Positions 17,660 through 50,572 of a stretch of 64,000 bases of DNA are shown here, piece after piece. Below the pieces are notes generated by a model. That model had not been told where the DNA came from and did no database searches. It saw nothing but the letters and a program-made list of their open reading frames with translations. The translations under genes and the position numbers were made by a program. Position 1 is the first letter of the stretch, and every line of letters begins with the position of its first letter. Origin of the DNA: a virus; the IMG/VR virus record IMGVR_UViG_3300031521_000025, positions 47,458-111,457 of that record; one strand, given 5' to 3'.

Positions 17660-18820
17660 ATGTATAGTCATAACAATGTATTAAAAAATGCGATTCAATA
17701 CTTCAATGGAGATGAATTAGCAGCTACTGTTTGGATGAACAAATATTGTTTGAAAAACAACAATGGAGATTTTTTAGAAAAGTCCCCAGAGGATATGCAC
17801 AAAAGACTTGCTAAAGAATTTGCAAGAATTGAAAAGAAATATCCAAACCCTATGTCAGAGGAAAAAATATTTGAATTAATTAATCGTTTTGATTATATTG
17901 TTCCTCAAGGCAGTCCAATGTCTGGTATAGGAAATAATCATAAAATTCAATCTATTTCAAATTGTTTTGTTATCAAAAACCCTTATGATTCTTATGCAGG
18001 GATATTTAAAACAGAGCAAGAAATGGTTCAATTAATGAAACGTAGAGGCGGAGTTGGGTTTAGTATACATTCTTTAAGACCTAAAGAAATGCCGACAAGC
18101 TCTGTTTCAGAAAAAAGTTCAGGAATTGTATTATTTTCAGAAAGATTTAGTAATGGAACAAGAGAAGTTGCTCAAGATGGAAGAAGAGGAGCTCTAATGT
18201 TAAGTTGTAGAGTTGATCATCCAGATATTGAAAGTTTTATAGATGCTAAATTAGATTTAAAGAAAATTACAGGAGCAAATGTATCTATAATGATTACGGA
18301 TGCTTTTATGGAAGCTGTAAAAGTTGATGGAGAATACGAATTAACTTTCATAGGAGAAAAAGGATCAATCTCAAAGAAAATTAAAGCAAAGAAAGTTTGG
18401 GATAAAATAATGTTTAATGCGCATAAAAGTGCAGAACCAGGAATTCTTTTTATGGATACTATTCATAATGAATCTCCTGTTAAAAATTACGGAGAAGAAT
18501 GGGTAGAAACTTCCACTAACCCCTGTGTTACTGGAGATACAATTGTAAAGACTTTAAATGGTGACTTAACTATAAAAGAAATTTTTGATAATAAAATTTT
18601 AGCAGATATTTATTCTTATAACACAGAAACTGAAAAAATAGAAGTTGATAAAATAGAAAATGTTTATTTAACTAGAAAAAACGCTAATGTTATAGAATTA
18701 GAATTAGATAATGGAGAAAGTATAAAATTAACCCCAGATCACAAAGTTTATACAAAAAACAGAGGCTGGACCCCTGCAGGTGTTTTAACAACAGAAGATA
18801 TTTTATTAAAAATTGAGTAG
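17660..18820 (+). CDS. nrdJ: class II (B12-dependent) ribonucleotide reductase, N-terminal half fused to split-intein N-fragment
   Basis: PQGSP, SNCFV, RGGVG, QDGRRGALM, GANVS, AEPGILF, ETSTNP then intein CVTGDT... Confidence 0.9.
   Translation: MYSHNNVLKNAIQYFNGDELAATVWMNKYCLKNNNGDFLEKSPEDMHKRLAKEFARIEKKYPNPMSEEKIFELINRFDYIVPQGSPMSGIGNNHKIQSISNCFVIKNPYDSYAGIFKTEQEMVQLMKRRGGVGFSIHSLRPKEMPTSSVSEKSSGIVLFSERFSNGTREVAQDGRRGALMLSCRVDHPDIESFIDAKLDLKKITGANVSIMITDAFMEAVKVDGEYELTFIGEKGSISKKIKAKKVWDKIMFNAHKSAEPGILFMDTIHNESPVKNYGEEWVETSTNPCVTGDTIVKTLNGDLTIKEIFDNKILADIYSYNTETEKIEVDKIENVYLTRKNANVIELELDNGESIKLTPDHKVYTKNRGWTPAGVLTTEDILLKIE
18524..18820 (+). mobile_element. split intein N-fragment (98 aa) in nrdJ
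   Basis: Block A CVTGDTIV, block B LTPDHKV, then stop. Confidence 0.9.
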
Positions 18821-18858
18821 AAATCCGTGCCGATTCTATATTTAAATAAAAAGAAAAT

Positions 18859-19656
18859 ATGGAAAATATAGAATCGGTAAAATCTTTATTAGAAGAAATT
18901 CAAAAAAGAGTTTTTTTAACAACAAGTACTTTAGTAAGGGTAGATAAAAACGGAAAAACAGTTAGAGTGGGTTGTGTAGCTCACGATGAAAAGAAAATAA
19001 AAGAAGATCCTCGTTACAAAACAACAAAAGATTGGTTATATTACAAATATATAAAAGAAGAATATAGTAGAAATTATTTAATTAAAGAATATAACTTAAA
19101 AGTTTCTTTATCTGTTTTTAAAAAAATATTTGAAATATTTGAAATTCCTGCAAGATGTTTAGGTACTGTTACTAATAGAACAAAAAGCCTAAGAAGTGAA
19201 AAGTCAAAAAAAGAATATGAAAAAAAAACTGGTTGGTGGGATAAAAAAGTATTTAGAGTTAATAAAGAATATAGCGGTAGAGGAATTCAAGGTTATTATT
19301 TTAACAAATCACTTCAAAAATTTGTATGGCTGCGAAGCTCTTACGAATATATTTACGCTAAGTGGTTAGATAATAATAACTGGGAGTGGGATGTAGAATT
19401 TAAAAGATACGAAGTAAAAGATAAAATTTATAGACCTGATTTTTTTATTTTCAACAATGGTGTTTTAAAAAAAATAGTTGAAATAAAAGGTTATTGGAAT
19501 AATACAAGTTGGAAAGTAGAAGAATTAAATAAAATATTAAAAATTGATGTTGCAATTATCAACAAAGAGGAAATTAAAAATTATACAATTAATGTTAGAA
19601 AAGATATAAAAGAATGGAAGGAAATAAGATTAAAGAAATTAGAATTAAAAAAATAA
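18859..19656 (+). CDS. free-standing putative homing endonuclease, PD-(D/E)xK fold
   Basis: LRSSYE...YRPDFFI...IVEIKGY; sits between the two intein halves. Confidence 0.75.
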   Translation: MENIESVKSLLEEIQKRVFLTTSTLVRVDKNGKTVRVGCVAHDEKKIKEDPRYKTTKDWLYYKYIKEEYSRNYLIKEYNLKVSLSVFKKIFEIFEIPARCLGTVTNRTKSLRSEKSKKEYEKKTGWWDKKVFRVNKEYSGRGIQGYYFNKSLQKFVWLRSSYEYIYAKWLDNNNWEWDVEFKRYEVKDKIYRPDFFIFNNGVLKKIVEIKGYWNNTSWKVEELNKILKIDVAIINKEEIKNYTINVRKDIKEWKEIRLKKLELKK

Positions 19657-19739
19657 ACATAATTCAAAACGAAGATGTTTATGATATTACAGTTAAAAAA
19701 AATCATAATTTTTTTGCAAATGGTTTGTTAATTCATAAT
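19614..19739 (+). mobile_element. split intein C-fragment (42 aa) in nrdJ
   Basis: Blocks F/G ending HN, followed by +1 Cys. Confidence 0.9.
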
Positions 19740-21356
19740 TGCGGAGAAATCCCACTGTGTGAGTTTGATTCTTGCAGGTTATTATCTCTTAATTTATTTG
19801 GATACGTAGTTAATCCTTTTACACCTGAAGCATATTTTGATTTTGAATTATTCAAAGAACATGTTAATTATGGTCAAAGAATGATGGATGATATTGTTGA
19901 TCTTGAGTTAGAAAAAATAGATATCATTTTAAATAAAATTGAAAACGACAAAGATGATGAAATTCTAAAACAAGTCGAAAGAGATTTATGGACAAATATT
20001 AAAAGAAAAGCAATATTAGGCAGAAGAACAGGTTTTGGGATAACAGCCGAAGGTGATATGCTTGCTGCTTTAAATATTCGTTATGGAACTCCAGCCGCTA
20101 CAATTTTTTCAATTGAAGTACATAAAACTTTAGCAATTTATAGTTACAAAACTAGTATAGATCTTGCAGAAGAAAGAGGTTGTTTTCCTATTTGGGATAA
20201 AGAAGTAGATGTAAAAAGTAATTACATTCAAAGAATTTTGCCAGAATTAAAACAAATAGGATATGAAGAAAAATATTTTAAATTTGGTAGAAGAAATGTA
20301 GCAAATCTTACAATTGCTCCTGCAGGATCTGTATCTTTATTAACAAGAACTACTTCTGGAGTAGAACCTGCGTTTATGATTTCTTATAAAAGAAGAAAAA
20401 AAATAAACCCTGAAGATGAAGGTGTAAAAGTTAATTTTGTTGATGTAAACGGTGACGCTTGGGAAGAGTATAATGTTTTTCATCCTAAATTTAGTTTATG
20501 GGCTAAAGTAAATGGATATGATACAGATTATATTAAAACATTACCTCAGAGCGAATTAGATAAAATTATTGAAAAATCTCCTTATTATAAAGCAACTTCT
20601 GCTGATGTTGATTGGGTAGAAAAAGTTAAGATGCAAGGAGCTATTCAAAAATGGATAGATCATTCAATTAGTGTTACTGTAAATATCCCAAAAGAAACTA
20701 CTGTTGAAACTGTAAATAAAATTTACACTGCAGCTTGGGAATCTGGCTGTAAAGGAATGACTATTTATAGAGATGGAAGTAGAAGTGGAGTAATGATTTC
20801 AAATGACGAACAAGATAGTAAATTTGAATATGTTGATTCTGCTAAAAGACCTAAAGAATTAGAATGCGACATTCATCACTTATCAGCATTAGGCAGCAAA
20901 TGGATTGTATTAATTGGATTACATGAAAATAAACCTTATGAAATTTTTGCACTTAAAGATGTCCAAGATAATGTTGAATTTGCAAAAAACTATACTAAAG
21001 GTAAAATTGTAAGAAGAAAAAAAGGTGTTTATGATTTAGTAAGTATAAAAGATCAAGTTTTACTAAAAGATATTGCTTCTTATTTTGAAACTGATGACGA
21101 AAGAGCTTCAACCAGAAGATATTCTTTAATGTTAAGACATAGAATACATCCTAAATATATTGTTTTTCAAGCAGAAGAAGAACCAGGATCTATTGTAGCT
21201 TTCAACAAAGCAATTGCTAGAACTTTAAAAAAATATTTAACTGAAGAAGATTTAAAATCTGTAGGAAAAGTATGTAAAGAATGTGGTTCTGAAAACTTAG
21301 CTATACAAGAAGGTTGTTTAGTTTGCTTAAATTGTGGAAGCTCTAAATGCGGATGA
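19614..21356 (+). CDS. nrdJ: class II RNR C-terminal half with N-terminal split-intein C-fragment
   Basis: VYDITV..NHNFFANGLLIHN|CGEIPL, then RRTGFG, TIAPAGS, TSGVEP, DHSISVTVN, GCKGMTIYRDGSR and a C-terminal Zn ribbon. Confidence 0.9.
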   Translation: MEGNKIKEIRIKKINIIQNEDVYDITVKKNHNFFANGLLIHNCGEIPLCEFDSCRLLSLNLFGYVVNPFTPEAYFDFELFKEHVNYGQRMMDDIVDLELEKIDIILNKIENDKDDEILKQVERDLWTNIKRKAILGRRTGFGITAEGDMLAALNIRYGTPAATIFSIEVHKTLAIYSYKTSIDLAEERGCFPIWDKEVDVKSNYIQRILPELKQIGYEEKYFKFGRRNVANLTIAPAGSVSLLTRTTSGVEPAFMISYKRRKKINPEDEGVKVNFVDVNGDAWEEYNVFHPKFSLWAKVNGYDTDYIKTLPQSELDKIIEKSPYYKATSADVDWVEKVKMQGAIQKWIDHSISVTVNIPKETTVETVNKIYTAAWESGCKGMTIYRDGSRSGVMISNDEQDSKFEYVDSAKRPKELECDIHHLSALGSKWIVLIGLHENKPYEIFALKDVQDNVEFAKNYTKGKIVRRKKGVYDLVSIKDQVLLKDIASYFETDDERASTRRYSLMLRHRIHPKYIVFQAEEEPGSIVAFNKAIARTLKKYLTEEDLKSVGKVCKECGSENLAIQEGCLVCLNCGSSKCG

Positions 21357-21378
21357 TAATTTTCAAATTACAATAAAG

Positions 21379-21417
21379 AAAACCCTTAAATAAAATAAAA
21401 ATATTTAAGGGTTTTTT
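21379..21417 (+). terminator. intrinsic terminator
   Basis: AAAACCCTTAAATA...TATTTAAGGGTTTT hairpin plus T tract. Confidence 0.75.
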
Positions 21418-21444
21418 GTTTTATTTCTTATATTAATAATAAAA

Positions 21445-21633
21445 ATGAAAAAGATAAATGTTGCAAGATTAGAACTTTGTTTAGAGTCGAAAAGTGTATC
21501 TCCTGAAATGAAAAATATTATTACAATAGCTGTAACTAATTTTATTTCTGTAAATTGTGGCGATGTAGCTCAAACGTCACATATTCAAAATTATATGCTT
21601 TTAGACGATTTAGGTTTATTAATAGAATATTAA
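21445..21633 (+). CDS. hypothetical protein
   Basis: 62-aa ORF after a promoter-like motif. Confidence 0.55.
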   Translation: MKKINVARLELCLESKSVSPEMKNIITIAVTNFISVNCGDVAQTSHIQNYMLLDDLGLLIEY

Positions 21634-21638
21634 AAAAA

Positions 21639-21818
21639 ATGAAAATGAAAAAGAAAAATACACTTTGGTTGCATAATCATGCTGGAGACGAAGCTTTTTT
21701 AGGTTTAGGTAAAGATCATGTTATTGTTGACAGAGAAGATTGGGAACAAGCACTTTCTTATAGAAAAATAATTGAAGAAATTGAAGAAATAATGGAAGAA
21801 AAGTTAAAAAAAGTGTAA
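21639..21818 (+). CDS. hypothetical protein
   Basis: Track ORF 21555..21818; likely ATG start at 21639 after the previous stop. Confidence 0.55.
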   Translation: MKMKKKNTLWLHNHAGDEAFLGLGKDHVIVDREDWEQALSYRKIIEEIEEIMEEKLKKV

Positions 21819-21871
21819 AAAAAAACTTATATTAATATTAGAAAAAAGTAATTAATAAAAAAAATAAAAAA

Positions 21872-22669
21872 ATGAAAACATTTGGAATTTTAAGCATTAG
21901 TGGAGGGATGGATTCTACCGCACTACTAATAAACATGTTGGAGAAAAACATGGATGTTAGATGTCTTTCGTTCAATTATGGACAAAAACATAAAGTTGAA
22001 CTTGAAAGAATTAAAAAAAATATTGAATATCTTAAATCTAAAGGATTTAATGTTGAACATAATGTTGTTGATATTTCTATTTTAGGTAAACTTTACAATT
22101 CTGCTTTAACAACAGAAGGTGTTGCTGTACCTGAAGGTCACTATGCTGAAGAAAATATGAAAGCAACAGTAGTTCCTAACAGAAATGCAATTTTTAGTTC
22201 TATGGTTTACGGTTACGCTTTATCTCTTGTAAAAGATGAAGACGGAGGTCAAGCATATATAGCTTTAGGTATTCATTCAGGTGATCATGATATTTATCCA
22301 GATTGTAGAGCAGAATTTAGAGATGCTTTAGAATATGCATTTAAAATTGGCAACTGGGATTCAGAAAAAGTAGAATACTATACACCGTATATCGATGGAG
22401 ATAAATTTAGCATTCTTCAAGAAGCTGAAGTAAATTGCAAAAAACTAGGACTTGATTTTCAAGTAATTTTCGGAAATACAAATACTTGTTATAACCCTAA
22501 TAGCAATGGAGAATCATGCGGAAAATGTGGTTCTTGTCAAGAGCGTTTATTAGCTTTCAACAAACTAGGATATAAAGATCCTGTAACATATTCTTCTGAT
22601 TATAACGAGTTAATTACAAACGTTTTAAAGTCGGAAGAAAATTTTAAAAATTCACAAAAAAAAGCATAA
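21872..22669 (+). CDS. queC: 7-cyano-7-deazaguanine synthase
   Basis: SGGMDS, FNYGQKH, VVPNRNAIF, YPDCR, TCY...CGKCGSC.ER. Confidence 0.93.
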   Translation: MKTFGILSISGGMDSTALLINMLEKNMDVRCLSFNYGQKHKVELERIKKNIEYLKSKGFNVEHNVVDISILGKLYNSALTTEGVAVPEGHYAEENMKATVVPNRNAIFSSMVYGYALSLVKDEDGGQAYIALGIHSGDHDIYPDCRAEFRDALEYAFKIGNWDSEKVEYYTPYIDGDKFSILQEAEVNCKKLGLDFQVIFGNTNTCYNPNSNGESCGKCGSCQERLLAFNKLGYKDPVTYSSDYNELITNVLKSEENFKNSQKKA

Positions 22670-22765
22670 ATTTTCGAGAGTTTTCTGAAAATTCTCATAT
22701 TTATAATAAATAAAGTAATGGTTCCGGGTAACCTATTTAGTATTAATTAAAAAACAAAAAAAACA

Positions 22766-23605
22766 ATGACAAACGCAGCAACAAAATTGCAAGAGACGTT
22801 ATCACGTCTAAACAAAATGACCAGTCAAAAAAAAGGTAGTGGAACTGGCAAAAAAATCAATTATTGGAAACCAAAACAAGGTAAAAATGAATTAATCGTT
22901 TTACCGTTCGCAGCTTTAGGTGATCCGTTTTTCGAATGGGGAGAACACAAAGGTCTTTTAGAGCCTTCTTATTTATCAATCCCTTGTGCACAACATTTTG
23001 ATGGTAGTCCATGTCCAATTTGTGAGGTTGTAAAAGATCTTAAAAAAGCGGATTGGAAAGGAAATAAAGAAATGTGGGCTCCAATCGAAACAAAAGTTCG
23101 CTATTATTCACCTGTAGTTGATTTAGCTAATATTGAAGCAGGTATTCAATGGTTTAGTTACGGAAAAACAGTGTTAAGTCAATTCCAAACTTGGCTTGTA
23201 AATCTTGAAGAAGATGAACTTCCTTTTTACAGTGTTGAAAATCCTGAAAAAATTATTGTTAACTATGATAAAGAAGCTGATGCTGCTTTAAAATATAAGT
23301 TAGACAAAAAAGCTATCAAAAAACTTCCTGAAGGTTTAGATCTTGAAGAACTAGTTGAAGGTATGGAAGATTTAGGTGCACTTTTAAATCAATACAAAAG
23401 AGATGATAATGCATTAGCTCAAATTGTTGATGATTATTTAAAAGTATTTGCTGAATCTCTTTCTGATGATGATGAAGAAGAAGAAAAAACAACTGAAACT
23501 CCTGAAGTAAAAGAAACATCAGAAAGTAATGATGATGACGATGATGACGACGATAAAGATGTTGATGACACTCCAAAGTTGAAATCTCTTAAGAAAAAAC
23601 AATAA
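22766..23605 (+). CDS. single-stranded DNA-binding protein (T4 gp32-like)
   Basis: YWKP..G, H...C...CPIC Zn site, acidic C-terminal tail, directly upstream of recA. Confidence 0.8.
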   Translation: MTNAATKLQETLSRLNKMTSQKKGSGTGKKINYWKPKQGKNELIVLPFAALGDPFFEWGEHKGLLEPSYLSIPCAQHFDGSPCPICEVVKDLKKADWKGNKEMWAPIETKVRYYSPVVDLANIEAGIQWFSYGKTVLSQFQTWLVNLEEDELPFYSVENPEKIIVNYDKEADAALKYKLDKKAIKKLPEGLDLEELVEGMEDLGALLNQYKRDDNALAQIVDDYLKVFAESLSDDDEEEEKTTETPEVKETSESNDDDDDDDDKDVDDTPKLKSLKKKQ

Positions 23606-23614
23606 CAACTCTTT

Positions 23615-23648
23615 AAAAAAGAGAGAATTTACTTCTCTCTTTTTTTTT
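23615..23648 (+). terminator. intrinsic terminator
   Basis: GAGAGAA-loop-TTCTCTC followed by a T tract. Confidence 0.75.
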
Positions 23649-23684
23649 ACAATTCAAACAAATTTTAATCTAATATAATTAAAA

Positions 23685-24944
23685 ATGGCAAAAGAAAATA
23701 AAGTTGTCGTAGACGATATCTTTGCAAAATTAATAGCTGAACAAAACAGTATTTCTCCAGGAGCAGCTGTTGCAGGCGATGAAATGTTCGCTGCAGTAAA
23801 AATTTGGATCCCAACAGGTTCTACAATTTTGGATACTATTATAGCTAACAAACCAGGTGGTGGTTGGCCTGCTGGAAGAACTGTTGAAATATATGGACAA
23901 GAATCTATTGGAAAATCTACATTAGTTTTTTCAGGATTAGCAAACGTTCAAAAAATGGGAGGTATTGCTATGTATTTTGATGTTGAGCAAGCAGGTTCTC
24001 AAGAAATGATGGAAAATAATGGAGTAGATTTAAGTAGGTTAATTGTTTCTAAATTAACTTCTATTGAAGAGATTTTTAAAGTTTTAGAAAAAAACCTTCA
24101 AACAATTATTAACACTAAATCATATAAAGATAAACCTGTTCTTGTTTGTATGGATTCATTAGCTCAAATGACTACGGATGCAGAATTGGAAGCGGATTAT
24201 GATTTTAATATGAATATTAATCTTAAAAAAGCAGTTCAAATTGGAAAAGCTTTAAGAAAGATAACTCCATATTTAAATGAAGCAAATGCTTGTTTAATCA
24301 TTATCAACCAGTTACGCGATATGCCTGGGACGACATATGGAGATCCTACCACCACGCCAGGGGGTAAAGCCCTCAAGTTTGCTGCGTCTGTTCGCATAAA
24401 ATTAATGGGAAAAACCCCCGTTCGTGTTTTAGATCCTATTACACAAGAGATTTATGACAATGCTGTAGAAGAATGGTATAATGAATGTGAAATTTGGAAA
24501 GAAAATGGCGGAGGGAAAACTGGAGCGAAAAAACCAGCAAAACCAAAGAAAACAGATTTTAAAGGAAGTGAAGTAACTGTTGGAAATGATGTTACAGCAA
24601 CTCTTGTTAAGAATAAAGTAGGACCTCCAAATAGAGAAGCAGAGTTTAGAATTATCTTTACTGAAGGTATTATTGAAGAAGAAGCATGGTTTGATTATGC
24701 TACAAAATTCAAAATTATTGAAAATGAAAATGCTTTTACTTATAAGTTTTCTGAAAAAAGTAAAATTGTTTTTGAAAATGAATTAGGCCCAATTCTTTTT
24801 AAAAGAGATGAATGGTTGGAGAACGTAATGGTGGATGTTGACATTAGAGAACAAGTAAAAAACCAAATTGTTAAAATGTTAACACAATCAACTAAAGGAG
24901 CTAAAGCAGCACCTGCTAAATTAGGCGAAGAAGACGAGGAATAA
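23685..24944 (+). CDS. recA: RecA/UvsX recombinase
   Basis: IPTGS..LD, Walker A GQESIGKS, MDS, INQLR, PGGKALKFAASVRI, KNKVGPP. Confidence 0.93.
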   Translation: MAKENKVVVDDIFAKLIAEQNSISPGAAVAGDEMFAAVKIWIPTGSTILDTIIANKPGGGWPAGRTVEIYGQESIGKSTLVFSGLANVQKMGGIAMYFDVEQAGSQEMMENNGVDLSRLIVSKLTSIEEIFKVLEKNLQTIINTKSYKDKPVLVCMDSLAQMTTDAELEADYDFNMNINLKKAVQIGKALRKITPYLNEANACLIIINQLRDMPGTTYGDPTTTPGGKALKFAASVRIKLMGKTPVRVLDPITQEIYDNAVEEWYNECEIWKENGGGKTGAKKPAKPKKTDFKGSEVTVGNDVTATLVKNKVGPPNREAEFRIIFTEGIIEEEAWFDYATKFKIIENENAFTYKFSEKSKIVFENELGPILFKRDEWLENVMVDVDIREQVKNQIVKMLTQSTKGAKAAPAKLGEEDEE

Positions 24945-24947
24945 GCT

Positions 24948-25922
24948 ATGCAAAGTAGAATTCTGTACATAGATGGCTTTAATTTGTTTCAAGCGAATTA
25001 TCGCTCTAATATAGCGCTAGATACAAATGGAGAACCTATAGGAGGGTTTATTGGAGTACTACAACAATTGAGGGGGTTAATTTACAAATTTTCCCCTCAA
25101 AAAGTACTTATGGTATTCGATGGACCAGATGCAGGTTTAAGAAGAAGAAGTTTGTATAGTGGATATAAATCAAAAAGAAGAGCAAAAAAACGATGTGCTA
25201 CAGTAAAATTAGGAGATGATTTGATCCAAACAGATAATGAATCAGAGCAATTAGAAAAATTGTTTAATGCTTTAAGAGTTTTGCCTGTACAATTGATTTC
25301 AGTTCCTTTTTACGAAGCCGATGATGTAATTTCTTATTTAGTTGCTAGAAACCCTGAATATAACAATATAATTGTATCTAACGATAAAGATTATTTACAA
25401 AGAATAACTGAAACTACACATGTTTATCAATTTACGAAAAAAAAATTGATGGATTTGAAAAAAGTAGAAGAAGAATTTGAAATTAATCCTAAAAATATTC
25501 TTTATTATAGATCAATAGTTGGAGATAGTTCGGATGAATTAATAGGGATTAAAGGATTAGGTAAAGATATTATAAATAAAATATCTGCGTTTAAAGAAAG
25601 AGCTTTTGATTCTTTTGGAGATTTTTGGAGTGAAATAGAAAGTCTTGAAGAAGGGAAAAGTAAAAAAATAAAACTACTTAAAGAAAATCAACAGCAAGCT
25701 TTGTTAATGTATCAATTAATGAGATTGGATGAAACTAGTTTAAATCAAAGAGCTATTAATTTAGTAAGATCTCAATTAGATGAACAATTAGATAAGCCTT
25801 TTTCCAGTATTGGGTTTAAAATCTTTTGCACAAAAAACAAGCTTAATATTCAGTTAAAAGATCCTGATAGTTTTTTAAGTGGGTTTTTTGCACTTAAAAG
25901 AAAAATAGAAATAAATACTTAA
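24948..25922 (+). CDS. 5'-3' exonuclease / T4 RNase H-like flap nuclease
   Basis: IDGFN, VFDG, YKSKR, EADDVI, SNDKDYLQ, GDSSD.L.GIKGLG. Confidence 0.9.
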   Translation: MQSRILYIDGFNLFQANYRSNIALDTNGEPIGGFIGVLQQLRGLIYKFSPQKVLMVFDGPDAGLRRRSLYSGYKSKRRAKKRCATVKLGDDLIQTDNESEQLEKLFNALRVLPVQLISVPFYEADDVISYLVARNPEYNNIIVSNDKDYLQRITETTHVYQFTKKKLMDLKKVEEEFEINPKNILYYRSIVGDSSDELIGIKGLGKDIINKISAFKERAFDSFGDFWSEIESLEEGKSKKIKLLKENQQQALLMYQLMRLDETSLNQRAINLVRSQLDEQLDKPFSSIGFKIFCTKNKLNIQLKDPDSFLSGFFALKRKIEINT

Positions 25923-25965
25923 AATAAAACAAGCTAAAATTAAAACATTTTAGCTTGTTTTATTT
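25921..25965 (+). terminator. hairpin/terminator
   Basis: AAATAAAACAAGCTAAAAT...ATTTTAGCTTGTTTTATTT inverted repeat. Confidence 0.7.
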
Positions 25966-26021
25966 ATAAAACTGAGAAAAAAATTCTTATATTTAAAATG
26001 TAATTAGTTATATAAAAAAAC

Positions 26022-27353
26022 ATGCAAGAAAATAATTTAAAAAAGTTCGGTCAAGATTTTCAATTATCAGTGCTTTCTCTTTTTTTTCAAGATAAATCTT
26101 TTACAAACAAAATTAAAGATATTTTAGAACCTGACTATTTTGATAATAAGTATTCTAAATGGTTTTGTGAAAAAGGTTTAGAATACTTAGAAAAATATAT
26201 GAACTTTCCATCTTCTGTAAAGGTTTTTAATATTTTAAAAACAATAATTGAAAAAGAAGTTGAAGAAAAAATGGCTAAAACATATCTTAGTGTTTTAGAA
26301 AAAATTTCAGAAGTTGAGTTAAGCGATAGAGAATATGTAGAAGCAGAAGTTTTTAATTTTTGTTTTACTAAATTTGCGTTAAAACAATTAGAAGAACAAA
26401 AAAATCAAATATTGTTAAACAATTTTGATGATGCAAGAAGGGTTGCTTTTAGTACATATACACCTATAGCAAAAAACAGTCAAGAGTTTTCTTTAAAAAA
26501 AGATTATAAGATTGCTTCAAAAGCCAAAGAACATTTAAATCCAATTCCTTTTCCGTTTAAAACTTTTACAGAAAACACAAGTGGAGGTCCTGGTGCTGGA
26601 GATTTAGCTATCATTATGGCTCAATCTAACTTTGGAAAAAGTAACTTTTTAGTTGCTTGGGCAAGACACGCGGCTGAAGTTGGACATAACGTTATTTATT
26701 TTACTTTAGAAACCAAAGGAGAGCAATTAATTGATAGAGCAATTGCAGGGTTAACAAGAATTAACCAAGCGGAGTTAATAAACCATGAAAAATTAATTGA
26801 ATCTAGGGTTAATAAAGTTTTAGGTGATGTTAAGTTTATTAAAATAAAATCTACCTTAGCTCGAATAGAAGTAGTTAAACAAAAAATTGAAGAAGAAAAA
26901 GCAAACGGCTTCTTTCCTGATTTTGTTATAATTGATGGACTAAATCAATTAAAAGCTTCTAAAGGTATGAATTTCAATGGAAATTCAAATGATAAATTTG
27001 AATATCTTTCTGAAGAACTTAGAGACATGGGAGAAGAATATGGAATCCCTATAGCAACCGCCTTTCAGAGTAACAGATGTTTAGCTTTAAACACTTTAGT
27101 GGATTTAAAAGATAAAGGTAAAGTTAAAATAATATCTTTAAAAGAAGGCGATGAAATTTTAACACATAAAGGGTATAAGAAAGTTACTAAAATATACCCA
27201 ACAGAAAAACAGCCTGTTTATAAAATCAAGTTAAAATCTGGTAAAGAAATAATATGCTCGGGAAAACATGAGTTTCCTTTAGAAAATGGAGAATTATTAA
27301 GCATAGAAGAAGGGTTGCAGCAAGGTTTCAAACTATTGACAAAAAAAATATAG
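26022..27353 (+). CDS. replicative helicase (gp41/DnaB), N-terminal half fused to split-intein N-fragment
   Basis: Walker A AQSNFGKS, FTLE, VIIDG, AFQSNR then CLALNT... Confidence 0.88.
   Translation: MQENNLKKFGQDFQLSVLSLFFQDKSFTNKIKDILEPDYFDNKYSKWFCEKGLEYLEKYMNFPSSVKVFNILKTIIEKEVEEKMAKTYLSVLEKISEVELSDREYVEAEVFNFCFTKFALKQLEEQKNQILLNNFDDARRVAFSTYTPIAKNSQEFSLKKDYKIASKAKEHLNPIPFPFKTFTENTSGGPGAGDLAIIMAQSNFGKSNFLVAWARHAAEVGHNVIYFTLETKGEQLIDRAIAGLTRINQAELINHEKLIESRVNKVLGDVKFIKIKSTLARIEVVKQKIEEEKANGFFPDFVIIDGLNQLKASKGMNFNGNSNDKFEYLSEELRDMGEEYGIPIATAFQSNRCLALNTLVDLKDKGKVKIISLKEGDEILTHKGYKKVTKIYPTEKQPVYKIKLKSGKEIICSGKHEFPLENGELLSIEEGLQQGFKLLTKKI
27078..27353 (+). mobile_element. split intein N-fragment (91 aa) in helicase
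   Basis: CLALNTLV block A; IICSGKHEFP block B, gp41-1-like. Confidence 0.9.
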
Positions 27354-27386
27354 TTGTTTGAAAAGAAAGTTGTATTTAAATATAAA

Positions 27387-28610
27387 ATGGAAAATAAATT
27401 AAAAAAATACAACTTTCTTTGTTGTAAAAAATACAAAGATCTTGTTTTGACTAACGATCAAATTGAAGAAATAAAAAAAATTCAAGATTTTTACGGCAAG
27501 AAAAAATTCAACGATCAATGGGGTAAAATAAAACATTTAGTAAAGGCAAAATATTCTCCTGATTGGGTTGAGAAAATTATTTCTTTAAAAAAAACAAATA
27601 ACTCTTCTTTAAAGTGGTTTATTGTGTTATATGGAGAAGAGGAAGGAAAATTAAAATACCAAGAAAAAAACATCAAAGTAGGAGGATCTTTAAATTCTTA
27701 TATTTTAAAATATGGAAAAGAAGAAGGTTCTGAAAGATATAAAAAAGCTTGTGAAAGTAAAAAAGGTCAATCTACAGAACAATGGTATATAAATAGATAT
27801 GGAGAGGAAGAAGGAAAACTAAAATGGAAAAAAATAAAATCTTCATGGAAGGAAGCTAATTTAAAAACAATAAAAGAAGGAAAAAGAAAAGGAAATGGAA
27901 GAAGTTTAAAAGAATATGTTTTAAGATATGGAGAAAAAGAAGGAGAAAGTTTATGGAGTAAAAGAAACTTGAAGCAAAGTCAAAGGTTTAGTTTGCAATA
28001 TTATACAGATAAATACGGAATAAAAGATGGAAAAAATAAATGGCAAGAATATTGTAAAAAAATGGATAAAGGATCTTTACAATATTTTACGAAAAAATAC
28101 GGAGAAGAAGGGTTAAACAGATATAAAGAAAGAAGTAAAGTCTGTAATTTTGGAGGCATGGGTTTAGAAAACTTAATTTTAAAATACGGAGAAGAAGAAG
28201 GGAGAAATAAATACCAAATATGGGTAAATAAAACCATGATTAATAAAAACAAAAGTATTAATTATAGTAAAATTTCTCAAGAATTATTTTGGAACATTTA
28301 CAATGAACTACCTGTAAGTTTAAAAGAAAAAGTGAAATTTGCAGAATTAAACGAAGAGCAAATGTTTAAAGTTTGGAAAAATGGAATGACTGTAATATTT
28401 GTAGATTTTAAACTTAATAAATGTATAATTGAATTTCAAGGAACTTATTGGCATAGTTTTTTAGAAGTTCAAGAAAAAGATAAAAAAAGAATTGATTTTT
28501 TAGAAAACTATGGTTATAAAGTCTTATGTTTAAAACAAAAAGATTATTTAAAAAATAAAATTAGCGTTACTAAAAATTGTATAGAGTTTTTACTTAAAGA
28601 AAGCAAATAA
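27387..28610 (+). CDS. free-standing Vsr-like putative homing endonuclease with seven YGEEEG repeats
   Basis: C-terminal SKISQELF...VDF....IIEFQGTYWH...D..R...L...GYKVL. Likely ATG is 27387, downstream of TGTATTTAAA (track start 27354). Confidence 0.8.
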   Translation: MENKLKKYNFLCCKKYKDLVLTNDQIEEIKKIQDFYGKKKFNDQWGKIKHLVKAKYSPDWVEKIISLKKTNNSSLKWFIVLYGEEEGKLKYQEKNIKVGGSLNSYILKYGKEEGSERYKKACESKKGQSTEQWYINRYGEEEGKLKWKKIKSSWKEANLKTIKEGKRKGNGRSLKEYVLRYGEKEGESLWSKRNLKQSQRFSLQYYTDKYGIKDGKNKWQEYCKKMDKGSLQYFTKKYGEEGLNRYKERSKVCNFGGMGLENLILKYGEEEGRNKYQIWVNKTMINKNKSINYSKISQELFWNIYNELPVSLKEKVKFAELNEEQMFKVWKNGMTVIFVDFKLNKCIIEFQGTYWHSFLEVQEKDKKRIDFLENYGYKVLCLKQKDYLKNKISVTKNCIEFLLKESK

Positions 28611-28611
28611 A

Positions 28612-29061
28612 ATGATTAAAGAATTAGAGCTATTAGAATTAGATGAAATAGAAAGTATAGAGTTTTTGGGAGAAGAAGAAACTATTGATATTTGTGTAGA
28701 AGATACTCATATGTTTTTTGCAAACGACATATATACCCACAATTCGGGTTTCAACACAGAATACGCAGATGAACAAAGTATTGGTAAAGCAATTGAAGTA
28801 TATCAAGTATGTGATTTAATGATTTTCTTTACACAATCCATAGGGATGCAAGATCAAGAAGAATGTTATGGTCAATTAATGAAAAACCGCTTAGGTAAGA
28901 AAGGGATAGCTTTAAAAATTGGATATAACCCAAATCATGCTACTTTTGAAGAATTGGAAGTCGTTAGTAGATTAAGTTTAATGGATAAAGGAGAAAAAGG
29001 TTCTGTTTTAAGAGGAATTGATAAAATAAGAAAGCAAAATTTAGAAAGAGCTCAAAAATAA
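28612..29061 (+). CDS. helicase C-terminal half with N-terminal split-intein C-fragment (44 aa, 28612-28743)
   Basis: TIDICVEDTHMFFANDIYTHN|SGFN...QVCD...MKNRLG. Confidence 0.88.
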   Translation: MIKELELLELDEIESIEFLGEEETIDICVEDTHMFFANDIYTHNSGFNTEYADEQSIGKAIEVYQVCDLMIFFTQSIGMQDQEECYGQLMKNRLGKKGIALKIGYNPNHATFEELEVVSRLSLMDKGEKGSVLRGIDKIRKQNLERAQK

Positions 29062-44444: not shown

Positions 44445-44453
44445 CTAAATTTG

Positions 44454-45827: not shown

Positions 45828-46221
45828 TTGCTTTTATAAATTGTTTGGTCATACAATTTATGTTTATGATTACAAACCATGGGGTGGAGATTATAAAGTT
45901 TTTTATAGAACTATAGATGGTAAAGAAGATTCTTATGTTGGAAGTATTTACGACATAAGAGAAGATTTTTCTGAAACTGAAGATGAATTTACTCTAAAAC
46001 CTAAAGTAGATATAGAAAAACACTTACAAGTTCCTGAAAAAACTAATATAGAACAAAAAAAAACAACTAATTATTATAAAATAGTTAAATATTATGATAA
46101 TAGCAAAACAAAAGGTGTTGTTTTAAAAAAAGATATCTTTGGGAAAGATTTAGCTTATGCATTATTAGGTAATATAAAAAAAACAAACAAAAAAGACATT
46201 TTAGGTGTAGAAATACAGTAA
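45814..46221 (+). CDS. hypothetical protein
   Basis: Operonic ORF. Confidence 0.6.
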   Translation: MLKNNCFYKLFGHTIYVYDYKPWGGDYKVFYRTIDGKEDSYVGSIYDIREDFSETEDEFTLKPKVDIEKHLQVPEKTNIEQKKTTNYYKIVKYYDNSKTKGVVLKKDIFGKDLAYALLGNIKKTNKKDILGVEIQ

Positions 46222-46247
46222 AATAATTTAAAAAAAATTTGTTTCGT

Positions 46248-46299
46248 AAGGTTTTTAATTGTATTTTTACTCGTTATTTAAAATACAATTAAAAACCTT
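46248..46299. repeat. perfect 20-bp inverted repeat upstream of dnaE
   Basis: AAGGTTTTTAATTGTATTTT / AAAATACAATTAAAAACCTT with a 12-nt spacer. Confidence 0.85.
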
Positions 46300-46317
46300 T
46301 TTAATTTTAAAAAAAAT

Positions 46318-47904
46318 ATGAATTATTTACCCCTTGTTCAAGTCCACATGCACACCAGTGGTTCTTTATTAGATGGTGTTGGAAGTATTAAAAGATATAT
46401 TCAAAAAGCTAAAGAATATAATCACCCAGCAATTTGTTGCACAGATCATGGAAATGCTATTTCTTTATATCAATTTTACAAAGAATGTAAAGAAGAAAAA
46501 ATTAAACCTATTTTAGGTTGCGAGTTTTATGTTACTCCTAATTTAGATGTTAAATTGCAAAACAAAAAAAGAGAAGTTATTGATAGAGATAAACATCTTA
46601 TCGTTTTAATAAAAAACGAACAAGGTTATAAAAACTTTTGTAAATTAATACATTTTTCTTTTGTAGATGGTTATTATTATAAGCCGAGAATAACTTTTGA
46701 TAAATTATGGGAAAACAAAGAAGGATTAGTTGTTTGTTCTGCTTGTGCCGCAGGTCCTATAAGTCAATTGATAACTAATGAAATGTTTAACGAAGCAGAT
46801 GAATGGTTTAAGAAATTTAAATCTGAATTTGGGGAAGATTTTTATGCAGAAATTCAATTAAATGAATTGGTTGGAAAAAAAGAAGAATTAGGTATTGATC
46901 AAAAAGAAATTAATGATTATATAATTAAATTAGCAAAAAAATATAAAGTTAAAACTATTGTTTCTGGAGATATTCATTACGCAGATCAAGAAGATTCTAA
47001 ATTGCAAGATATTGTAATTAATTGTATGCAAAGAAAAGATGGAGCTGCAACTGAAATGGGCCAATCTTTTATTCATGCAAGACGTTTATATTATCAATCA
47101 TCAGAAGATTTTTTTCTTTTTAATAAAGAATTTGAATATCATTATGATGAAGAGTTTTTGAAAGAATGTTTTGAAAATTCTTTAGAAATTGTAGATAAAT
47201 GTAATTTTGATTTTAAAACGAATGTAAATAATTACCCAAAATTTCCTTTACCTGAAGGCACAGATTTAAAAAAACATGTTACTAAGTTGGCTTTTAAAGG
47301 GTTGGAAAAATTATTAGAGATTCGTATTGAAAAAGGAGAAGAATTTAGTGATGAGTTTTTAGAACAATATGAAAAAAGAATAGAATACGAAATAAAAATA
47401 ATTGCAGATAAAGGATATTTGGATTACTTTCTCGTTTATCATGATATGATTAAATGGGCAAAAGAAAACGGACTTCAGGTAGGAATAGGGCGTGGTAGTG
47501 CTGCAGGATCTTTGTTGTCTTATTCATTGGGTATTATATCTCTTGATCCTATAGAACACGGGCTTTATTTCGAAAGATTTATGAACCCTGATAGAAATAG
47601 CCCCCCAGATATTGACTGTTTATTAGAAGACAGTTTAGTCTTATTACCAGATAATTCTTTTAAAAAAATTATTGACTTACAAATTGGAGATGAAGTACAA
47701 ACTAATGAAGGTGTTGCAATTGTTTTGTTGAAACAAAAAAGAAGCAAAAAAACAAAAGAAAAAATATTTGAAATTGAATCAGAAAAAGGGGGAATTTTAA
47801 GATTAAGTGAAGATCACATTATTCCTGTATTAAGAGAAAACGAAGGTTATAAAGAAATCAAAGTAAAAGATTTAAAAATTACTGATTTTTTAATAGGGAT
47901 TTAA
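46318..47904 (+). CDS. dnaE: DNA polymerase III alpha, N-terminal half (PHP + palm) fused to split-intein N-fragment (47617-47904, 95 aa)
   Basis: H.HT..SLLDG, TDHG, KPILGCE, YYKPRI, GRGSAAGSL, FERFMNP.R..PPDID then CLLEDS...LSEDH. Confidence 0.92.
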   Translation: MNYLPLVQVHMHTSGSLLDGVGSIKRYIQKAKEYNHPAICCTDHGNAISLYQFYKECKEEKIKPILGCEFYVTPNLDVKLQNKKREVIDRDKHLIVLIKNEQGYKNFCKLIHFSFVDGYYYKPRITFDKLWENKEGLVVCSACAAGPISQLITNEMFNEADEWFKKFKSEFGEDFYAEIQLNELVGKKEELGIDQKEINDYIIKLAKKYKVKTIVSGDIHYADQEDSKLQDIVINCMQRKDGAATEMGQSFIHARRLYYQSSEDFFLFNKEFEYHYDEEFLKECFENSLEIVDKCNFDFKTNVNNYPKFPLPEGTDLKKHVTKLAFKGLEKLLEIRIEKGEEFSDEFLEQYEKRIEYEIKIIADKGYLDYFLVYHDMIKWAKENGLQVGIGRGSAAGSLLSYSLGIISLDPIEHGLYFERFMNPDRNSPPDIDCLLEDSLVLLPDNSFKKIIDLQIGDEVQTNEGVAIVLLKQKRSKKTKEKIFEIESEKGGILRLSEDHIIPVLRENEGYKEIKVKDLKITDFLIGI

Positions 47905-48147
47905 CGTCATAATCTATAAATATACCAAAAAGATGATGTTAACGTAAGAACACTAAGGTCAGCAAAAGATGTATGGGAAAAAGATAGAAAAAGAAAAGTT
48001 GATATAATTAATGCTTTAAATTCAGAAGTAATTGTTATATGGGAAAATGATTGGAAAACAAAAAAAGAAGAAATAATAAATTATATAAAATATGTTGTAC
48101 AAAATAAAATCGATAAAGGAAATACAATCAGAAAAAAAACTTGTTGA
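47905..48147 (+). pseudogene. remnant of a Vsr-like homing endonuclease (C-terminal fragment, no start)
   Basis: Manual translation RHNL*IYQKDD...SAKDVWEKDRKRK...EVIVIWENDWK...* resembles the WH.NP..Y...A.EIW..D..R.....V.VIWE.DW tail of Vsr-like HENs. Confidence 0.75.
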
Positions 48148-50572
48148 TATTACTTTAAATAAAACTAATTTATTCTATGCAAAAAGTAAAGAAAGCAATC
48201 ATTGCTTTCTTGTACATAATTGCGATGTGTCTGAAAGAGAGCCAATCAGAAAATATTTTGAAGAAAAATATGGCAAAGAATCTGTATATGGTGTAATGAC
48301 TCAAACAGTATATCAAGTTAAATCTTCTTTACAAGACGCAAGTAGAGGTTTAGAAAAAGACACTTCTTTTCAGTCTACTTTAATGAGAGAAATTACTAAA
48401 TTACCTGAACTTGATGACGCTAAAAACATTAAAGAATATTTTGATAACTTAGCAAAGAATAATTCTTTATCAGATGCTTGTTATGATTGGTATACAGATA
48501 ATCAAGATACTATTTATTGGGCGGACAAATTAATGGGGCTAACAAAAAATGTTGGAACACATGCTGGAGGTATTGTTATTTCTCCAGGGCCAATATATGA
48601 TTATATTCCTGTTACAAAAGCTGGAAAAGAAATTGTAACAGCTTTTAGAGAGTCAGATGGTAGTGGTCATGATTTATCTGATTTAGGTTTATTAAAATGT
48701 GACATTCTTGGTCTTAAAACATTAAAAGTAATTAGAAGTTGTATAGATGATGTAAAAAAAGATTTAGATATTGATATTTCAGATTCTTTAAATTTTTTAG
48801 ATCTTAAAGATAAAAAACTTTATGAGAAATTTAATAAAGGAAACAATGTTGGTATTTTTCAAATGGATGGAGCTGCTCCTTCTTTTTTAATTAAAACAAT
48901 TAACCCTGATTGTTTTGAAGATATTAATGCTATTAACGCTATTAACAGACCTGGACCTTTAGAAACTTTCGGAAAAGTTTATGGACAATGGAAAAGATGG
49001 GAAAAAGAAGGAAATGAAGTTGAGTTAGCTAAAATTGAAAACGAAAGATATCCTTTTGAATTTATGAAAAGCTCTTTGTCTGATACTTACGGATGTTTAC
49101 TTTATCAAGAAAGTCTGATGTTAATGGTGTGTGAAATAGCTGGTTTTAATATGGGAGAAGCTGATACTTTAAGAAGAGCAATTGGTTGGCCAAAATCACA
49201 TCCTAAATATTATACTGTAGAAAAGTTATTTACTAAGCTAGAAGAAGGGATATTAAAAAAAGGATATTCACAAGATGACTCTGAGTTGTTTTTAGAATAT
49301 TGTCGCAAGTTTTCAGGCTATTCTTTTAACAAATCACATTGTGCTTGCTATTCTTATACTGCTATGCAAACATTGTGGTTGAAAGTTTATTATCCTGAAT
49401 ATTTTTATGCTAACTTACTAAACGTTGAACCATTTGAAAATTATCAAAATATAGTAGCTGACGCAATTTCAAATGGAATTAAAATTTTATTCCCAGCCAT
49501 CAACAAAGCTTCTTATAACTTCAAAGCAGAAAAAGGAGCAGTAAGAATAGGATTTAAAGCTTTAAAAGGATTTGGTGATGCAGCCCAGGAAGAATTGTTG
49601 TCAATGAATCTTACTCAATATGAAAATATATATGATATATTAGCATTACCTTTCAAGAAAGTAAATTCTGCAGCGTTTCAATGCCTTATTGATTGCGGAG
49701 CATTTGATGAATTTGGAATAGAAAGAGAAAAGATTGAAGTTGTAAGAAATCTTTATAAAGACCCACAAGTTCAAAAATGGTTTACTAGAGAAAAAGGATA
49801 TTTAGATATTGCAACTATACCTGAAATGTTACTTCAAGTTAAAGAAGAAAAACTATTAGAGGTAATTGAAGAATTAAAACCTTTAGAAGTAAAAAGAAGA
49901 CGAATGATTCAAGATTTACAAATTGAAAACGCTATAAATCTTTTATATGATAAATATTCTGAAATTGCAACAAAAGAGCAAATTAAAACTGCAGTAGATA
50001 CTTTAGAAGATGTTAAAATTACTGCAAAAAAGGCGTTTAAATTGATTGGAATTGAATTAAGTAATATTGGAGTAGATACGCAAGAGTTAATTGATTATTT
50101 AACGTCTATGAAAGATTCTATTGAAGAAATAGATGAAGACCTTTTACCAAAACCTTGGATTGAAATGGTAAATAGAATAATTCCTTATGTTACCTTCAAG
50201 CCATTAACAGAAAAACAAAAGGACGACAAACTTGAAAAAATATTAGGGTTTTCTTTAACATTAGTAAATAACTTAAGTAAACTTATTTTTCTATCTGAAC
50301 AATATCCAGATTTAAACCTTAAAAGTTTATCAAGTCACTCAGACGAAAATGATTTATGCTATTGGTATTTAATGGATAAAACCACTTTAAAAACTAAAAC
50401 AGGTAAAGACTATTGGGTGTTAAAAATTACAGATGGTGTATCAACAGTTAACGCTAAATGTTGGGAAAAGATAGATTTTAAAAAAGATGAAGCTTATGTT
50501 TCTCATTTAAAAAAAGACCAATGGGGTCATATGATTAAAATAGATGAATATTTAAATCAAATAGAGATGTAA
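48092..50572 (+). CDS. dnaE: DNA polymerase III alpha, C-terminal half with split-intein C-fragment (48092-48220, 43 aa)
   Basis: LVDITL...LFYA...FLVHN|CD; HAGG, LLK.DILGL, GIFQ, RPGP, YQE, GYSFNKSH and OB-fold end. Confidence 0.92.
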   Translation: MLYKIKSIKEIQSEKKLVDITLNKTNLFYAKSKESNHCFLVHNCDVSEREPIRKYFEEKYGKESVYGVMTQTVYQVKSSLQDASRGLEKDTSFQSTLMREITKLPELDDAKNIKEYFDNLAKNNSLSDACYDWYTDNQDTIYWADKLMGLTKNVGTHAGGIVISPGPIYDYIPVTKAGKEIVTAFRESDGSGHDLSDLGLLKCDILGLKTLKVIRSCIDDVKKDLDIDISDSLNFLDLKDKKLYEKFNKGNNVGIFQMDGAAPSFLIKTINPDCFEDINAINAINRPGPLETFGKVYGQWKRWEKEGNEVELAKIENERYPFEFMKSSLSDTYGCLLYQESLMLMVCEIAGFNMGEADTLRRAIGWPKSHPKYYTVEKLFTKLEEGILKKGYSQDDSELFLEYCRKFSGYSFNKSHCACYSYTAMQTLWLKVYYPEYFYANLLNVEPFENYQNIVADAISNGIKILFPAINKASYNFKAEKGAVRIGFKALKGFGDAAQEELLSMNLTQYENIYDILALPFKKVNSAAFQCLIDCGAFDEFGIEREKIEVVRNLYKDPQVQKWFTREKGYLDIATIPEMLLQVKEEKLLEVIEELKPLEVKRRRMIQDLQIENAINLLYDKYSEIATKEQIKTAVDTLEDVKITAKKAFKLIGIELSNIGVDTQELIDYLTSMKDSIEEIDEDLLPKPWIEMVNRIIPYVTFKPLTEKQKDDKLEKILGFSLTLVNNLSKLIFLSEQYPDLNLKSLSSHSDENDLCYWYLMDKTTLKTKTGKDYWVLKITDGVSTVNAKCWEKIDFKKDEAYVSHLKKDQWGHMIKIDEYLNQIEM

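Follow-up and report, generated by a model that had tools for sequence, protein, structure and literature searches.

The window analysed here comprises the last 64 kb of the 111,457-bp IMG/VR virus record IMGVR_UViG_3300031521_000025, whose completeness is estimated at ~41% (CheckV). Three of its genes, nrdJ, a DnaB/gp41-type helicase gene and dnaE, are each encoded in two separate open reading frames (ORFs) on the + strand. In every case the upstream ORF consists of the host protein's N-terminal part (N-extein) followed by the N-terminal part of an intein (IntN), and the downstream ORF consists of the C-terminal part of an intein (IntC) followed by the remainder of the host protein (C-extein). 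An earlier note on this DNA had read the three genes as such pairs, and this reading is borne out by the ORFs themselves, by profile matches that continue from one half to the other and by the uninterrupted alleles of a sister contig. The features are listed in Table 1, and splice junctions are marked by a slash throughout.

Table 1. Features of the three fractured genes and of the surrounding replication module (positions in the window; aa, amino acids; nt, nucleotides)
Feature	Position	Strand	Match or basis
nrdJ N-extein, 288 aa, ends ..ETSTNP	17660..18523	+	NrdJ_Z profile 2-281; Pfam RNR lgN + barrel 1-212
nrdJ IntN, 98 aa, Cys1, starts CVTGD, block B LTPDH, net charge -6; then TAG	18524..18817, stop to 18820	+	NrdJ-1 (8UBS) E 5e-16; Pfam Intein_splicing
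nrdJ hairpin, 16 bp, encloses endonuclease start codon; TATTTAAATA in 5' arm and loop	18828..18879	+	RNA fold
Free-standing nuclease ORF, 265 aa, PD..ExK core, Bax1/DUF790-like	18859..19656	+	
nrdJ IntC, 42 aa, ..NFFANGLLIHN, net charge +2	19614..19739	+	Pfam Intein_splicing 121-155; NrdJ-1 (PDB) E 5e-5
nrdJ C-extein, 538 aa, starts CGEIPLC	19740..21353, to 21356 with stop	+	NrdJ_Z profile 282-605
Helicase N-extein (DnaB/gp41-type), 352 aa, ends ..FQSNR	26022..27077	+	Pfam DnaB_C 12-185; PHROG 19
Helicase IntN, 91 aa, Cys1, block B SGKH, net charge +6; then TAG	27078..27350, stop to 27353	+	gp41-1 (6QAZ) E 8e-15, residues 12-90
Helicase hairpin, 16 bp; endonuclease ATG (27387) in loop; TATTTAAATA in 5' arm and loop	27362..27420	+	RNA fold
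Free-standing Vsr-like (I-Bth0305I type) putative homing endonuclease, 407 aa	27387..28610	+	Pfam DUF559; PDB 3R3P
Helicase IntC, 44 aa, ..FFANDIYTHN, net charge -13	28612..28743	+	gp41-1 (PDB) E 1e-5
Helicase C-extein, 105 aa, starts SGFNTEY	28744..29058, to 29061 with stop	+	68% identical to sister C-extein
dnaE N-extein, 433 aa (PHP and start of NTPase domain), ends ..NSPPDID	46318..47616	+	Pfam PHP, DNA_pol3_alpha 10-106; NF004226 6-405
dnaE IntN, 95 aa, Cys1, block B SEDH, net charge -2; then TAA	47617..47901, stop to 47904	+	Pfam Hint/Intein_splicing
dnaE gap, 187 nt: start-less remnant, last ~45 codons of Vsr-like endonuclease	47905..48091	+	Frame-0 translation
dnaE IntC, 43 aa, ..CFLVHN, net charge +4	48092..48220	+	Alignment to the IntC from 10 related loci with a fractured dnaE
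dnaE C-extein, 783 aa, starts CDVSERE	48221..50569, to 50572 with stop	+	DNA_pol3_alpha 110-260, finger, HHH_6 domains
Module genes, first part: baseplate protein, phosphoribosyltransferase, nrdJ, QueC, gp32, UvsX/RecA, 5'-3' exonuclease, DnaB/gp41-type helicase	14-51 kb	+	
Module genes, second part: second QueC-like gene, DHH phosphoesterase, fused SbcD-SbcC, sigma-70-region-2 protein, dnaE, SprT	14-51 kb	+	

The nrdJ gene encodes a class II ribonucleotide reductase (RNR), its two halves scoring 194.7 and 286.8 bits against TIGR02504, the simple sum of which exceeds the cut-off of 399.95. The profile matches abut at the junction, as seen for NrdJ_Z (Table 1) and for Ribonuc_red_lgC, where 1-212 is followed by 212-523, and the +1 Cys is that of the NPCGE motif, so that joining the halves restores NP/CGE. 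The IntC and the 3' end of the nuclease ORF overlap, each being read in its own frame. In the helicase gene the junction restores QSNR/SG, and the spliced protein (457 aa) is collinear over its whole length with the DnaB-type helicase of the cultured Flavobacterium phage immuto (450 aa), which has no intein, the alignment being ungapped at QxNR/xG; the C-extein finds no match in tblastn against cultured phages. The helicase IntN and the endonuclease ORF share one frame, with just one TAG plus 11 codons in between (27351-27386); amber read-through would yield an IntN-endonuclease fusion, of which there is no sign. The third gene carries the PHP, NTPase, finger and HhH domains and the PDxDxD motif of DnaE (Pol III alpha), its junction restores PDID/CD, and the profile matches to its halves are near-contiguous, both for DNA_pol3_alpha and for NF004226 (6-405 then 411-892). 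The three restored motifs are those that the earlier note had named, and all can be read directly at the ORF junctions.

The N and C halves lie in different frames in all three genes, so stop read-through cannot join them. All class 1 splicing residues are present, namely C1, TPDH and HN/C in the nrdJ intein, C1, SGKH and HN/S in the helicase intein, and C1, SEDH and HN/C in the dnaE intein, and from these intact residues protein trans-splicing of the three pairs is predicted. In the alignment of the dnaE IntC with its relatives, D19, F28, H42 and N43 are invariant. Since both halves of each gene are on the same strand and no terminator-like + strand site lies between the nrdJ halves or between the helicase halves, co-expression of these halves appears plausible. 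At nrdJ and the helicase, the start codon of the IntC overlaps or adjoins the stop of the endonuclease ORF, the helicase IntC ATG lying 1 nt past the stop. Both intact endonuclease starts are embedded in perfect 16-bp hairpins, of -18.4 kcal/mol at nrdJ (z -6.2, with 0/200 shuffles as stable) and -15.4 kcal/mol at the helicase (z -5.5). Comparable hairpins were reported at 15/16 endonuclease leaders by Dassa et al. (PMC2677866), and one is also known from Aeh1 mobE. The element TATTTAAATA, present in both hairpins, is marginally enriched in the window (5 matches vs 1.9 expected), and TATAAATA is not (16 matches vs 19 expected). In the dnaE gap there is no start-codon hairpin, with RNA folds at z about -1.

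The closest of the dnaE-relative loci lies on the 51-kb contig IMGVR_UViG_3300014204_000238 (G006, here called the sister contig), which is syntenic with the window in the order nrdJ, queC, gp32, uvsX, exonuclease, helicase, sbcCD and dnaE at 53-80% protein identity. Its exteins are 70-79% identical to those of the window (79% for the nrdJ N-extein). Two of the three genes are intein-free across the exact predicted junctions, reading ..NSTNP-CAELPLC.. in nrdJ and ..SPDID-LDILSGGRE.. in dnaE, an agreement in position far greater than chance would give. The sister helicase, on the other hand, contains a contiguous mini-intein at the same site (..FQSNR/CLALDT...THN/SGYNTEY..), which is collinear with the IntN and IntC of the window with zero residues missing and whose N part is 74% identical to the window IntN. 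The helicase gene of the window has in addition a 1,261-nt cassette (27351-28611) at the split point, made up of a stop, a hairpin leader, the endonuclease ORF and a new start. As the DNA of the helicase intein is about as conserved between the two contigs (71-74% identity) as that of its exteins (73-77%), the intein was probably present in the common ancestor; the cassette may have been gained in the window phage or lost in G006. We see no co-conversion tract, in that extein identity neither dips nor rises beside the junctions between window and sister. Furthermore, the sister uvsX (L088:2742-3176; 21742-22176) contains an in-frame mini-intein of ~145 aa at GDPT/TTPGG (C...NSN/T), a site at which the window uvsX (23685-24944) is intein-free. 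Because the sister lacks two of the three inteins and has one in uvsX, intein content turns over quickly, as for selfish elements.

The claim of two intact endonucleases of different families and one decayed copy likewise holds. The helicase-locus endonuclease is Vsr-like: it scores 23.3 bits against DUF559 (cut-off 20.6), matches the catalytic domain of I-Bth0305I (3R3P) at E 0.003, and has the Vsr-type core, with D340, E349 and H356 invariant in alignment A6. Its catalytic core is C-terminal, and the N-terminal two thirds (27600-28350) consist of seven tandem repeats of ~25-30 aa with a (K/R/L)YG-x-EEG core, which are presumably modular DNA-binding units. The core D..E..G.YWH..D..R is shared with the ORFs found at the dnaE loci of related phages, which keep two KYGV copies. 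In the window, the frame-0 translation of the dnaE gap (..SAKDVWEKDRKRK..IWENDWK..) corresponds to the C-terminus of these intact 350-370-aa ORFs, the catalytic core being deleted and all frames being interrupted by stops. Fractured helicases with a 40% identical endonuclease ORF in the same position also occur in a distant phage group (L012-L015), where the exteins are 34% identical to those of the window, the IntN 64% and the IntC 88%. Inteins that are far more alike than their exteins suggest horizontal movement of the helicase element.

The nrdJ-locus nuclease belongs to a family of at least 380 homologues of ~250 aa, which has no Pfam family of its own and matches DUF790 weakly. E163, D194 and E208 are invariant in the family and K210 nearly so (..PDFF..VEIKGYW..). 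The AlphaFold2 (AF2) model (pLDDT 87) finds PD-(D/E)xK nucleases as its best Foldseek matches, Bax1 with probability 1.0, then TnsA and the R2 endonuclease domain. A Vsr-type core is absent, ExK being present and the Vsr-type His missing, and in hhalign the catalytic strands alone align with the Vsr-like set, at a probability of 10%; the two sets are thus of the same fold class and of different families. In 76 of 80 viral loci the homologue adjoins an IntN upstream and an IntC downstream, and the other 4 loci are end-truncated. About one third of the host genes are nrdJ orthologues. The rest do not match the nrdJ exteins of the window, and many of them have a gp41-type helicase gene directly upstream. 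This family may represent an undescribed third endonuclease family dedicated to split inteins, and with it a large unnamed nuclease family, found almost solely inside split inteins, comes into view. Endonuclease activity of the helicase- and nrdJ-locus ORFs is predicted from their conserved catalytic residues.

The dnaE locus can be placed among many relatives. As a single-protein query against viral contigs the dnaE N half found nothing, and an alignment-based scan succeeded, returning 80 loci. In about 20 related viral loci dnaE is also fractured, by an intein that is ~40% identical to that of the window and is accompanied by an endonuclease ORF that is still intact; insertion there is at NPxRN/SPPDIDIDF, six codons upstream of PDID/C in the window. 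That the window site might be unique to it was rejected, as an exhaustive protein search found PDID/C also used by P0132, whose intein is 62% identical, and by P0142, P0147, P0161 and P0168. Phage dnaE genes thus have three insertion sites (GRG/SAAG, NPxRx/S and PDID/C) within ~45 residues, as seen among the proteins P0132, P0137 and P0168 and the loci L055-L057 (9243-9509, 12258-12494). Some genes are cut at GRG/SAAG and at one of the other two sites, leaving a middle extein of ~40 residues between an IntC and an IntN, and at L055-L057 dnaE is in three pieces. Given the several sites in use, this 45-residue stretch of phage DnaE is an intein hot spot, which fits the three distinct DnaE insertion sites reported in 2009 (PMC2677866).

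Fracturing of genes is not confined to the window. Upstream of it, the gene for the terminase large subunit is also broken (G000:C1:4941-9496, L006): its N part ends in ..LLCIDE with a 33-aa tail starting with Ser and is followed by an unrelated 225-aa ORF, after which a 993-aa ORF starts with a long intein C-part (..VSSN/C) and also carries a contiguous LAGLIDADG intein (C...SHN). The arrangement matches the atypically split intein described for a terminase in 2009 (PMC2677866) and brings the contig to four split inteins and one contiguous intein. A 794-aa ORF, also outside the window (G000:C1:27513-29894), matches the IntN profile weakly (E 6e-4) at residues 109-176, a stretch that could represent a Hint-like domain within a structural protein.

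The earlier note had considered the co-residence of three pairs on one phage to be notable. The three pairs are indeed on one phage; their number, however, is not exceptional. When 23 other large viral contigs, picked for a dnaE relative or a fractured RNR, were searched with the IntN profile, they gave 0-5 matches each, and two of them (G016 and G017) also have three fractured genes. The fractured genes of G016 (160 kb, complete) encode a DnaB-type helicase, a subunit of GyrB-like topoisomerase type with ATPase and Toprim domains, and an RNR, the helicase halves being ~60 nt apart with no endonuclease between them. In G017 (131 kb), a topoisomerase A-type subunit (DNA_topoisoIV domain), an SF2 (superfamily 2) helicase and RNR are fractured. 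Three fractured replication genes per phage is thus a recurring state of large environmental phages and not unique to the window phage. In a limited literature search we found no paper that states multi-gene co-residence explicitly. Fractured topoisomerase, helicase and RNR loci of this kind are L170-L175 (G017, G016) and L176-L177 (G024). In G022 and G023 the RNR gene is in three pieces, and the nrdJ relatives L096-L098 (3873-6733) have, besides the split intein, a second interruption of ~1.6 kb, ~198 residues into the C-extein.

We consider it highly probable that the window holds three independent fractured genes of the type described by Dassa et al. in 2009, carried as trans-splicing selfish elements by one uncultured large T4-like phage. 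The steps may be envisaged as follows. A mini-intein would have entered each host gene at a catalytic motif, the family differing from gene to gene (NrdJ-1-like in nrdJ, gp41-1-like in the helicase and phage dnaE-specific in dnaE), and each intein would then have been split at its canonical split point by a free-standing homing-endonuclease cassette. Both halves would be translated, probably from one transcript. IntN and IntC would dock, aided by complementary charge, and the class 1 reaction (Cys1, (T/S)xxH, terminal HN, +1 Cys or Ser) would ligate the exteins into complete NrdJ, helicase and Pol III alpha. The sole role of the endonucleases would be to spread the elements, with translation probably held back by the start-codon hairpin, and the one at dnaE would already have decayed.

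Several points weigh against this reading. First of all, splicing, splicing rates and co-transcription are what we infer from the sequence. Second, Ser replaces Thr in block B of the dnaE (SEDH) and helicase (SGKH) inteins, which is probably harmless because gp41-1, which splices fast, has SEEH in the aligned position. Third, the Shine-Dalgarno signals before the three IntC starts are weak. Finally, with a contig that is ~41% complete, from a genome expected to measure about 270 kb, intact redundant copies elsewhere in the genome are possible; on the 111-kb contig itself, neither a family-B polymerase nor a second RNR was found.

The earlier note had gone further and suggested that there is possibly a post-translational checkpoint on dNTP (deoxyribonucleoside triphosphate) supply, unwinding and synthesis. 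On such a reading, splicing of the three enzymes would be conditional, for example redox-gated via Cys1 and Cys+1, and would coordinate these functions. In its favour, each of the three inteins interrupts a catalytic motif, and the halves are therefore expected to be inactive until spliced; two of the three have Cys at both 1 and +1; and it has been argued that the way inteins cluster in replisome proteins is a hint of function (PMC4760082). However, inteins generally insert at catalytic sites because conserved sites are safe homing targets (PMC2677866), and the three inteins here belong to unrelated families with separate endonuclease histories and no link of shared control. The sister contig has intein-free nrdJ and dnaE, and the uvsX intein of the sister is missing here, a turnover as for selfish elements. 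A checkpoint is thus unlikely, and the control linkage is without support. A wider version that takes in the terminase, so that the Cys1/Cys+1 chemistry of four split inteins would switch replication functions on together in a permissive intracellular state, has an equally small chance of being right. Because nrdJ and dnaE of the sister are intein-free, the inteins are dispensable; they are selfish passengers tolerated by the phage and not an evolved control device.

The intein halves might also do no more than dock the two polypeptides non-covalently, like a clasp; a fractured gene that functions unligated is known in nrdA/mobE of Aeh1 (PMC2677866, PMC3045599). Here, however, none of the three pairs lacks a residue needed for splicing, be it Cys1, the His of block B, the His-Asn at the end or the +1 residue (Cys, Ser and Cys), and gp41-1 and NrdJ-1, the nearest relatives to have been characterised, are very fast at splicing (PMC7090010), which makes docking without ligation improbable. 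It is more doubtful still that the endonuclease insertions have inactivated all three genes in a defective or host-dependent phage variant. The contig is incomplete and the decayed dnaE endonuclease shows that sequence at such a locus can degrade, but the exteins are full-length, free of frameshifts and conserved throughout relative to the sister, and the split layout is kept in distant lineages. The sequence also recurs in metagenomes: the dnaE locus is present in at least five peat metagenome runs, five of them holding 0.71-0.97 of its sampled 31-mers, and in wastewater runs at a lower share. No RNA run is among the listed holders, and the RNA-Seq label on some wastewater runs is a guess. 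That mis-assembly made the stops, or that a group I intron excises the inserts from the mRNA, is favoured by none of the results and can practically be dismissed. The two halves of each gene differ in frame, and at nrdJ and the helicase a complete endonuclease ORF separates them. Three runs listed under different samples and studies (X1-X3, X1 being perhaps the source sample) contain 0.93-0.97 of the 31-mers sampled from the dnaE locus, and many independent contigs share the layout. Every insert has an intein block at either end that continues the frame of the adjoining extein, and the RNA-splicing explanation is without support because Rfam finds no family, group I introns included, anywhere in the window.

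With trans-splicing selfish elements as the preferred reading, the question arises of how far the three pairs are orthogonal, which the earlier note had expected and put forward as a natural ligation toolkit. The three IntN are mutually 14-29% identical and the three IntC 24-35%. The helicase pair has the opposite charge polarity to the other two (Table 1) and is for this reason very likely orthogonal to them. The dnaE and nrdJ pairs, on the other hand, are 24-33% identical and of the same polarity, and orthogonality between them would have to come from sequence divergence alone. The polarities of the helicase and nrdJ pairs are those of gp41-1 and NrdJ-1 (PMC2677866), and these two have already been combined as orthogonal inteins in one-pot and recursive ligations (PMC7090010), so that the toolkit as such is not new. 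The dnaE IntN matches gp41-1 weakly (E 0.006).

The window adds one more case to the fractured genes known since 2009, whose host genes, hairpin-guarded endonuclease starts and endonuclease-less loci were all reported then, and our knowledge of how fractured genes work is unchanged by it. Three new natural split-intein pairs are gained, among them a dnaE-specific family without a close solved relative. In addition, window and sister contig together form a natural before-and-after series for the 2009 model of split-intein origin within ~75%-identical genomes, comprising the empty site (sister nrdJ and dnaE), the contiguous mini-intein (sister helicase), the endonuclease-split intein (helicase here) and the decayed endonuclease (dnaE here). 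These are concrete target and donor alleles for homing assays.

The surroundings of the three genes are those of a T4-like replication module, located at 14-51 kb of a window with a G+C content of ~26% (Table 1). No near cultured phage exists among the closest phage matches, which are 29% identical for the helicase and ~36% for dnaE, the latter to unannotated gut phage contigs, and positions 17660-29061 have no match in megablast against cultured phages. The standard genetic code applies, with long ORFs ending in TAA 73, TAG 8 and TGA 5 times; recoding of TAG was considered and rejected, as 8 long ORFs end at TAG and the long genes are open under code 11. A single 1,191-aa ORF at 33281-36856 combines an SbcD-like phosphoesterase with an SbcC/SMC-like ATPase, a fusion that the sister contig shares at 53% identity. 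In T4 the SbcD and SbcC counterparts are the separate genes gp47 and gp46. The module also has two QueC-like genes (21872-22669 and 29453-30208), and their presence hints at a 7-deazaguanine DNA modification pathway.

Among known systems, the fractured genes of Dassa et al. (PMC2677866) are closest, and the link that the earlier note had drawn to them is upheld by layout, host genes, hairpins and the endonuclease-less state. They share the order of N-extein with IntN, hairpin spacer, free-standing endonuclease ORF and IntC with C-extein on one strand, the host types (gp41-type helicase, NrdJ, DnaE and terminase), a Vsr-like endonuclease and a likely phage origin, and their gp41-7 is in an endonuclease-less state comparable to that of dnaE here. 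The 2009 loci, however, are short GOS (Global Ocean Sampling) fragments with one gene each, whereas here three genes and the terminase lie on one 111-kb contig with sister alleles at hand, and the core of the nrdJ nuclease here is a canonical D..ExK that lacks the Vsr-type His. Of the characterised inteins, gp41-1 (PDB 6QAZ) has the same gp41/DnaB-type helicase host, homology in both halves, a positive N and strongly negative C part and a +1 Ser; the helicase intein here is likened to it by homology and host family and is a diverged homologue in a distant T4-like peat phage, not in a cyanophage. The gp41-1 insertion corresponds to position 356 of P-SSM2 gp41. NrdJ-1 (PDB 8UBS) has in common the class II RNR host, the IntC motif ..HNFFAN..(I/V)HN and the negative N and positive C part. 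The insertion here appears to be one residue off, with the NPCGE Cys as +1, a difference that depends on the text of Dassa et al., which gives NP/C as the insertion site of the NrdA type and puts NrdJ-1 one residue C-terminal of it (PMC2677866).

The DnaE split inteins of Ssp and Npu are natural ones as well, have both Cys1 and Cys+1 and likewise join two polypeptides into Pol III alpha. Their sequence similarity to the dnaE intein here is weak, and the site here follows PDID, with halves 187 nt apart around an endonuclease relic, whereas in cyanobacteria the halves are far apart. The Vsr-like I-Bth0305I (3R3P, PMC3239194) shares the core D..E..G.YWH..D..R with the helicase-locus ORF, and the dnaE remnant is the C-terminus of a member of the same superfamily; I-Bth0305I lies in a group I intron, whereas the helicase ORF, of predicted activity, is nested in a split intein and has the seven YG-x-EEG repeats. 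Finally, nrdA-a/mobE/nrdA-b of Aeh1 is also a phage RNR broken by a free-standing endonuclease, whose translation is held back by a hairpin in which a late-promoter-like element lies. It has no intein and its halves assemble non-covalently, whereas the split-intein halves described here predict that the exteins are ligated covalently.

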